Positions 21,909 through 22,113 of a stretch of 64,000 nt of DNA are shown here, piece after piece (within the stretch, counting starts at the first letter, position 1; each line of letters opens with the position of its first letter). The notes beneath the pieces are model-generated. The model was not told the origin of the DNA. It did no database searches and saw only the letters and a program-made list of their open reading frames with translations. The DNA comes from Bacillota bacterium. Lineage in GTDB: Bacteria; Bacillota_I; Bacilli_A; RF39; UBA660. The position numbers and the translations under genes were made by a program. The stretch spans positions 13,939-77,938 of the forward strand of contig SVAW01000001.1 in NCBI GenBank assembly GCA_015059195.1, in the 5' to 3' direction.

Positions 21909-21937
21909 TTGACAAACTGAACAAAGCGTAATAAAAT
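21909..21937 (+). promoter_or_regulatory. sigmaA promoter of the leader/pilin-remnant unit
   Basis: TTGACA-N17-TAAAAT. Confidence 0.75.
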
Positions 21938-21963
21938 TAAAATAGACAAGGGATTAAGATAGT

Positions 21964-22092
21964 ATGGTTAGAGTAATTACAAAAAACAAGTTAACAAAAA
22001 TAACCACCTGGGGGGTGGGGGATTTAAGTAACCATACTATAACTAGAAAAATAAATAAACACGAAAGAATTTTAGAAAATCCATCGTTCTAA
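21964..22092 (+). CDS. Putative 42-aa leader peptide containing a G6TG5 tract
   Basis: Hand translation MVRVITKNKLTKITTWGVGDLSNHTITRKINKHERILENPSF*; AAGGGA upstream; stop lies inside the downstream hairpin. Confidence 0.5.
   Translation: MVRVITKNKLTKITTWGVGDLSNHTITRKINKHERILENPSF
22010..22021 (+). repeat. Interrupted poly-G tract GGGGGGTGGGGG
   Basis: Read directly; the most G-rich run I saw in this AT-rich window. Confidence 0.9.
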
Positions 22093-22113
22093 AATTTGTT
22101 TTCGTGTTTTTTT
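22057..22113 (+). terminator. Long terminator/attenuator hairpin upstream of the pilin-type start
   Basis: AAACACGAAA GAATTTTAGAA-N9-TTCTAAAATTT gt TTTCGTGTTT followed by a T run. Confidence 0.75.

Follow-up and report, generated by a model that had tools for sequence, protein, structure and literature searches.

How could a run of guanines that lies outside both promoter and structural gene decide whether the gene behind it is expressed? The question is raised by the leader located at positions 21909-22113 of the window, i.e. the whole 64,000-nt stretch of DNA analysed here. An earlier note had described this leader as a promoter, a 42-codon ORF crossing a G6TG5 tract, a double TAA and a hairpin followed by a U run, placed before a pilin gene, and had proposed that tract length, by setting the reading frame, determines whether the terminator can form. 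All the leader elements were recovered, at the coordinates given below. After comparing 81 leaders from 9 genomes, a frame switch set by tract length is the best-supported explanation, with a probability that we estimate at about 60%: the leader would be a mutational on/off switch acting through translation-dependent transcription attenuation. One element had been missed, a helix (P1) that holds the AUG of the leader.

Anatomy and copies of the leader

All features listed here are on the + strand. The leader is preceded by the acetate kinase gene (ackA ORF in the ORF list, 20674-21885), which has its own terminator at 21884..21909, made of a hairpin and then a T run (stem 21884-21903, then TTTTATTGAC); the leader is thus a separate transcription unit. 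A sigma-70-type promoter matching 11 of the 12 consensus positions was detected by the promoter scan at 21909..21937, with TTGACA as -35 box (21909-21914), a 17-nt spacer and TAAAAT as -10 box (21932-21937). Sequence comparison indicated that both hexamers are retained in the paralogous leaders and in those of relatives. The Shine-Dalgarno-like motif AAGGGA (21948..21953), which is GGGAG in most paralogous leaders, is located 10 nt 5' of the leader ATG. From this ATG (21964) the mini-ORF extends in its long frame over 42 codons, to the TAA at 22090-22092. It crosses the G6TG5 tract (22010..22021); the other copies have a G9-G11 run, which is interrupted here. Two early TAA stops, one per alternative frame, are found at 22025-22027 and 22029-22031 (sequence ATTTAAGTAA).

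The intrinsic terminator (22057..22113) was identified from fold prediction and from compensatory changes between species. It comprises a 5' arm of 21 nt (22057-22077), a loop of 9 nt (22078-22086), a 3' arm of 23 nt (22087-22109) and a T7 run (22107-22113), and the stop codon of the long frame occupies positions 4-6 of the 3' arm. Relative to the base of the hairpin, the first stops of the three frames are located at -32, -28 and +33 nt. The final 78 nt of the leader have a predicted folding energy of -17.7 kcal/mol, the hairpin regions of all leaders ranging from -10.7 to -32.5 kcal/mol (mostly -16 to -26). A simple terminator scan missed the hairpin of the window because its 9-nt loop exceeds the limit of 8 imposed by the scan. 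In the alignment of leaders, the compensatory changes are GC to AU in 11 sequences, CG to UA in 10 and CG to AU in 10.

In classical homopolymeric contingency loci (Bordetella fim; Neisseria opc, porA and pilC; Campylobacter), the tract is located in the promoter spacer or in the structural gene, and slipped-strand mispairing of the G/C run switches surface genes, including large families whose members switch independently. The layout of the leader differs from both arrangements. Unlike in a promoter-spacer switch, the hexamers lie at 21909-21914 and 21932-21937 and the tract begins only at 22010; unlike in an in-gene switch of the Neisseria pilC type, the tract is outside the frame of the structural gene and before a terminator. 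It is found 73 nt 3' of the -10 box and 125 nt 5' of the ATG of the gene, so that changes in its length leave both the promoter spacing and the frame of the gene untouched. This layout, with the run inside a short ORF (21964-22092 in the window) between promoter and structural gene, is found in all 81 leaders.

The genome of the window (G000) comprises 752,911 bases in 12 contigs and is 87% complete. A BLAST search with positions 21886-22160 identified 19 copies of a leader unit of ~245 nt in this genome, at 84-96% identity: 14 before intact pilin-like genes of 293-320 aa, 3 before truncated genes and 2 interrupted by the end of a contig. Where the pilin paralog is intact, its ATG is found about 125 nt past the tract, beyond the terminator. 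The pilin-like proteins carry a prepilin N-terminal methylation motif (PF07963, E = 1.2e-7; TIGR02532, E = 2.8e-8), and both a prepilin peptidase and an ATPase of the T2SSE type are encoded in the genome. Genome-wide, 17 G/C runs reach a length of at least 9, and every one of them is inside a leader unit, against an expectation of about 0.3 for runs of at least 8; runs of exactly 7 number 5, all outside leaders. The leader architecture thus exceeds chance. One of the intact pilin-like genes (313 aa) is found in the window itself, at 70-1011, its leader lying just upstream of the window (G000:C10:13691-13919) with a G9 run in the short frame and an extra module of ~70 nt before the RBS. This module is present in 4 of the 19 copies, and many copies of relatives have a ~100-nt form. 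When these 70-100-nt modules were scanned for the consensus of a second promoter, the G000 copy gave no site and a G001 copy gave a weak one, matching 9 of 12 positions.

Four of the 6 other genomes of the genus carry the same leader unit at 67-74% identity. A covariance model built from 28 leaders matched 22 times in G001, 25 in G004, 21 in G005, 5 in G003, 3 in G006 and once in G002, these counts including a few partial or antisense terminator matches; the architecture is present in about 20-25 copies in each of three genomes of the genus. When 101 genomes of the family, one per genus, were scanned, only weak matches were obtained beyond the genus. Those of G078 and G098, read by eye, exhibit the same order of parts with different P1 and hairpin sequences: promoter, SD, ATG, about 10-15 codons, G9, early stop, helix partner, terminator, RBS and gene. 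A match in G010 was rejected as a leader since it consists of the terminator alone. The homologous leaders anticipated by the earlier note are thus found in 19 copies at home, throughout the genus and in two further genera. In G003, G006, G002 and G098 the genes under leader control (L112-L118, L088, L042) code for surface proteins other than pilins: proteins carrying a membrane anchor at their N terminus, and a lipoprotein containing a Listeria-Bacteroides-repeat-like stretch. As a cassette, the switch is thus portable and not specific to pilins. The bases preceding the run vary by clade (CCACCT, CCAACCT, TTAACCA, ATTTGT, CTGTAT). In the JGI metagenomes, a 29-nt flank pattern gave no match, and a 21-nt leader pattern gave 3 unrelated matches attributable to chance.

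Poly-G was also surveyed before the pilin homologs of other genomes, where 18 of 80 loci have G7 or more within 330 nt upstream. At L145, L163, L169, L188 and L196 it lies between TTGACA and the -10 box, as in a classical spacer switch (G16 once). At L154, L158, L159, L174, L193, L202 and L209 the poly-G instead provides the 5' arm of a small terminator-like hairpin, GGGG-TATA-CCCC, with a T run (such as T8) behind it. Both groups of loci belong to other uncultured Bacilli.

Reading frame, run length and decayed copies

The leader set was derived from 131 model matches in 85 loci. We retained the 82 sense matches of full length, to which 2 G000 copies were added; the 49 matches dropped were partial ones, antisense terminators and 3 sense matches truncated at the end of a contig (L003, L126, L127), L067 being kept despite a 3' end cut by a contig end (152 of 162 model positions). 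Three of these 84 leaders have no ATG (G005 L128, G001 L087, G078 L041) and were set aside, leaving the 81 leaders.

The ATG frame is open to the tract in all 65 unique leaders with an intact run or in the long frame. These form 16 clusters at 70% identity, for which the product of the shuffle probabilities is 10^-6.3. Among the 72 unique ATG-to-tract sequences, a stop in the ATG frame is found in 3, all of them copies with a decayed tract, and the other two frames contain stops in 71 and 72 sequences, counts which are not independent because one of the stops sits in a conserved GTTAA. By these sequence statistics, the ATG frame is under selection to remain open. The encoded peptide is conserved in MV(K/R) alone, which suggests that selection bears on the act of leader translation and not on the peptide produced.

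The 3' side of the run was compared in the 59 leaders with at least G7: in 58 of them, one or more frames enter the hairpin and one or more stop earlier, and in 56 there is exactly one long frame. The long frame ends in the loop or the 3' arm, also in clades with other hairpin sequences. At least one frame was open in 34-93% of trials with shuffled spacers, so that we did not retain an open frame into the hairpin as stand-alone evidence. The frequency of such frames in shuffles is one argument for regarding the leader as a non-functional passenger, i.e. a duplicated upstream region homogenised by gene conversion between pilin paralogs, with an ORF and stops present by chance. Another is that identity is 84-96% within the genome and about 70% between species of the genus, a pattern which indicates concerted evolution. 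A passenger would leave unexplained that the architecture persists in other genera with a different sequence and before non-pilin genes, that the terminator exhibits compensatory changes, and that both the open-frame statistic and the frame bias of the decayed copies (see below) depart from chance. We regard this explanation as very improbable.

Run length varies between copies. The tracts of the paralogs of G000 have a length of 9 to 13, and the long frame is found in 5 of 18 leaders, of which 3 precede truncated genes and 2 precede genes that have the extra module. Among the 10 intact genes coupled directly to a leader, none is predicted ON, which tells against the attenuator. Between genomes, 23 locus pairs with matching upstream flanks were found, the flank identity being 86-99% in 17 of them. 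The longest G run differs in 11 and the predicted state in 8 of these 17 orthologous pairs (some loci belonging to several pairs, and homopolymer lengths in metagenome assemblies being possibly wrong); in one pair with 98.7% flank identity, a G10 in the short frame faces a G6 in the long frame. The tract is thus not invariant between species, as the earlier note had expected of a slipping run. Exactly G9 is found in 41 of the 81 leaders, a narrower spread than might be expected, which tells against a very unstable run.

The G6TG5 allele was matched exactly by one contig piece of the public run X1. Over 21300-22900, the contigs of runs X1, X6, X7 and X8 break inside the leader, where word depth is about 345 against 13.5 in the flanks and where pieces of ~20 paralogs are piled up. 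Because of this pile-up, indels at 22015/22016 and a G>T at 22021 cannot be assigned to the window locus.

No G run longer than 6 is left in 22 leaders, and these decayed copies are informative on the meaning of the frames. When the gene directly follows the terminator, 11 are in the long and 2 in the short frame (a G000 copy with G5TG4 and G006 L118). With an extra 70-100-nt module before the gene, the numbers are 1 long and 4 short, and 3 long and 1 short when the downstream distance is undefined. The slippery leaders comprise 13 long and 46 short frames. The difference between 11/2 and 13/46 has a Fisher p-value of 4e-5 and the binomial test against 1/3 gives p = 2e-4, both tests overstating independence since the compared copies share descent and gene conversion. 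Read by eye, the long decayed copies present about eight independent kinds of decay. As a gene that can no longer switch would be kept only if it is expressed, the bias toward the long frame is the best argument for the long frame being ON. In one G078 copy, the ATG (now ACG) and the run have decayed together. The suggestion of the earlier note that the central T of the window tract may be a stabilised allele fits with these data, interrupted or decayed tracts recurring in relatives, mostly in the long frame.

The run could also alter expression independently of any reading frame, by a direct effect on the transcript or by slippage of the RNA polymerase, with the mini-ORF as a secondary feature. 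In uspA1 of Moraxella catarrhalis, a G run in the transcribed leader gives low mRNA levels with 8-10 G and high levels with 11-12 G, without a period of three (Lafontaine 2001, as cited in PMC7302503). Also in favour of such an effect, pilin homologs of other genomes combine poly-G in a hairpin arm (GGGG-TATA-CCCC-T8) with no obvious ORF, and P1 may hold the leader untranslated. We nevertheless consider it unlikely, because it explains neither the ATG frame open in 65/65 unique leaders, nor the fixation in the long frame of 11 of the 13 decayed, directly coupled copies, nor the joint decay of ATG and run. Moreover, a pairing partner for the G run was sought among the leaders and none is conserved, the flanking bases varying across clades.

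Helix P1 and the proposed switch

Both the minimum-energy fold and RNAalifold predict a helix of 12 bp, P1. Its 5' strand (ATAGTATGGTTA, 21959..21970, + strand) holds the leader AUG, and its 3' strand (TAACCATACTAT, 22029..22040, + strand) begins at the second early stop. One pair of the helix is G-U in 18 sequences and G-C in 10, which indicates that P1 is a structure of the sense RNA rather than an inverted repeat in the DNA. In G002, G003, G078 and G098 the sequences are different and the pairing is retained. Cognate duplexes have a mean energy of -14.2 kcal/mol, against -9.3 for non-cognate ones. P1 always includes or abuts the leader AUG, and it also includes the SD in G003 and G098. Inspection by eye of the P1 strands and of the pre-tract region revealed no conserved antiterminator pairing with the terminator arms.

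According to these fold models, P1 probably restricts translation of the leader to the time before its 3' strand is made. Alternatively, it could mean that the leader is seldom translated; early formation of P1 would leave the leader untranslated and thus tells against the attenuator reading.

A conserved structure sequestering the start region, kept with at least 5 different sequences, would also be expected of a conventional attenuator or structured RNA responding to a signal (ligand, protein, temperature or ribosome stalling), in which the G run would be tolerated or incidental. The whole leader does fold better than its shuffled versions (z = -5.0, 200 shuffles), and the modal G9 (41/81) could reflect a constraint on length. 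On the other hand, the search for a known riboswitch called for by the earlier note matched no family: Rfam 15 gave 0 matches at the gathering score in the whole window, and with lax filters the best match in the leader was a microRNA model at 22.5 bits, under its gathering score of 72. Inside P1, little is conserved apart from the run and the open frame, run length varies between orthologous loci, and a run of 9-11 G found in leaders only, in a 30% GC genome, can hardly be regarded as incidental. A signal-responsive RNA of this kind appears to us improbable.

For the frame-dependent attenuator, we infer the following chain of events, from slippage in populations to the assignment of the ON and OFF states. 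Transcription would start from the strong promoter, and ribosomes would translate the mini-ORF across the G run, replication slippage changing from time to time the number of G and hence the frame past the run. In two of the frames the ribosome would meet a stop 3-17 nt past the run, which leaves it about 11-46 nt (mostly 15-32) short of the terminator; the hairpin would then fold and transcription would end (OFF). In the third frame the ribosome would continue as far as the terminator loop or 3' arm before stopping; its presence there would prevent folding during the time that the polymerase spends at the T run, and transcription would proceed into the surface-protein gene (ON). P1 would pair the start region of the mini-ORF with the sequence just past the early stops.

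In Bacillus subtilis the polymerase outruns the ribosomes, a situation that would disfavour an attenuator mechanism. Two observations support the attenuator. Poly-G in a promoter spacer is found before homologous pilin genes of sister lineages, and a switch with this logic is proven in S. gallolyticus, its function in L. lactis being established too, as presented in PMC3894217.

A more tentative reading, which we consider possible but rather doubtful, extends the attenuator to the whole genome. The leaders would form a combinatorial display of about twenty strong promoters with poly-G switches, P1 allowing translation of each leader only during its own transcription. In the course of evolution, run decay would lock constantly needed genes in the ON state, and deletion would eliminate genes that are attacked while expressed, as at the window locus. 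If so, the decision would be taken once per transcript by the pioneer ribosome, terminated leader RNAs of ~170 nt, free of ribosomes, would be abundant, and expression would require both the right frame and conditions of fast initiation, i.e. a stochastic gate combined with a physiological one.

Known systems and the gene behind the window copy

The earlier note had not recognised the leader as a described element, an opinion that the literature corrects. Danne et al. (2014, PMC3894217) reported GCAGA repeats in the leader peptide gene located before pil1 and pil3 of S. gallolyticus. In the model presented there, a short peptide ending 39 bp before the terminator results in low expression, and out-of-frame variants ending within or after the terminator result in high expression. 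The model is backed by mutants of the ATG, by a 3-stop mutant and by deletion of the terminator, and it also operates in L. lactis (PMC3894217). Our full-text searches of the literature turned up no other described leader-peptide/terminator phase switch.

The two systems have in common, as far as the account in PMC3894217 goes, a promoter, a leader ORF bearing a repeat, a premature stem-loop terminator and pilus genes, in a Gram-positive gut host. In both, the short frame stops before the hairpin is reached, by 39 bp in S. gallolyticus and mostly by 15-32 nt in the present leaders, whose long frame, like that of S. gallolyticus, stops within or after it, the ON state having been measured in S. 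gallolyticus and being predicted here. The dependence on translation established in S. gallolyticus may have its counterpart in the present leaders, given their conserved SD and ATG, the open frame and the decayed copies fixed in the long frame. They differ in the repeat (a homopolymeric G run here, GCAGA there), in the genes (type IV pilin-like and other surface proteins against sortase pili), in the number of copies (about 20-25 per ~1-Mb genome against two) and in the long frames (usually one of three here, against both out-of-frame states there). A helix sequestering the start is present here; none is mentioned for S. gallolyticus in that account. What is new is thus the plain G-run build of a switch of the S. 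gallolyticus type, the switch logic itself being already known.

Two other systems share part of this design. As in uspA1, the G run lies between the promoter region and the start codon of an adhesin gene, and the leader ORF and terminator present here are not described for uspA1 in the account of PMC7302503. In the E. coli trp leader, the position of the ribosome on the leader ORF decides whether the terminator hairpin forms (PMC3894217). Here this position would be set by a heritable change of frame instead of the supply of charged tRNA, and, unlike in trp attenuation, no alternative antiterminator pairing was found.

If the frame-dependent switch is real, it would be the main control of the largest gene family in an uncultured gut bacterium of ~0.75-0.9 Mb and in its genus. 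The mechanism would then be a general solution in Gram-positive gut bacteria. A sequence rule (ATG, run, early stops, terminator) could predict from metagenomes which surface genes are ON, and the locked copies, the co-decayed copies and P1 would be natural experiments on the rules of ribosome-dependent antitermination. Variable pilus tips take about 2-3% of this small genome with few genes.

The gene behind the window copy departs from this scheme. The earlier note had placed a pilin gene there, and a pilin-type start is indeed present: an RBS-like AGGAAAG and an ATG are found at 22134..22148 (+ strand), and the pilin paralogs start with a sequence matching ATGAAAAAG, which is found at 22146, 32 nt past the T run. 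What follows is a deletion remnant (22149..22351, + strand), i.e. the last ~65 codons of a pilin-like gene in a frame that differs from that of the ATG. The remnant frame, 22112-22351, terminates in ...YNGVRPIILLEV. The junction is marked by an AGAGGAT microhomology, common to the junction and to the 5' end of a paralog. The remnant gave a weak DUF6273 match (17.2 bits, under the 23.5 cut-off), and its structure is also found in contigs of the public runs X1 and X6. The window copy is therefore a locked leader (G6TG5, long frame) before a dead gene, and it probably no longer controls anything useful.

Three truncated pilin genes are known in G000, at 22146-22351 of the window, G000:C10:150583 and C10:139108. 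All 3 are behind long-frame leaders, against 0/10 of the intact genes directly coupled to their leader. Chance (1 in 27) may account for this association, or selection removing expressed genes may have left it behind.

The base composition of the remnant is unusual as well. The region 22190-22335 has 53% GC in a 30% GC genome and is extreme among the pilin paralogs. In the last 150 nt of these paralogs, A represents 20-31% of the bases against 37-48% elsewhere in the genes and GC is higher, so that the A-poor, GC-richer C-terminal part resembles the targets of diversity-generating retroelements (DGR). A DGR origin of the GC-rich remnant was tried and rejected: neither a reverse transcriptase nor a template repeat was found in G000, no RVT_1 match was obtained in this genome, tblastn with the Avd-like and reverse transcriptase proteins of G003 gave no match there, and BLAST of 22100-22360 matched the paralogs solely in the shared 5' leader/gene-start segment and in the 33-nt 3' end.

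The G003 proteins are encoded at L129 (G003:C1:135122-138760), about 2.7 kb downstream of the leader-controlled surface gene L116. The locus comprises a 111-aa ORF (970-1305), which looks like a putative Avd-type accessory protein, and a 284-aa reverse transcriptase (1516-2370) with an IGNMSSQ motif. RVT_1 matches are also found in G005 and G006. In G003, a retroelement and a poly-G leader may act on one and the same gene.

Finally, several genes of the window are related to sporulation. Two small acid-soluble spore protein-like genes (2417-2686 and 4393-4584) are paralogs, with 75% identical DNA over 170 nt, and Spo0A and YunB are encoded at 13787-14557 and 24470-25249, respectively. Such a sporulation toolkit is unusual in a genome of ~0.75-0.9 Mb.
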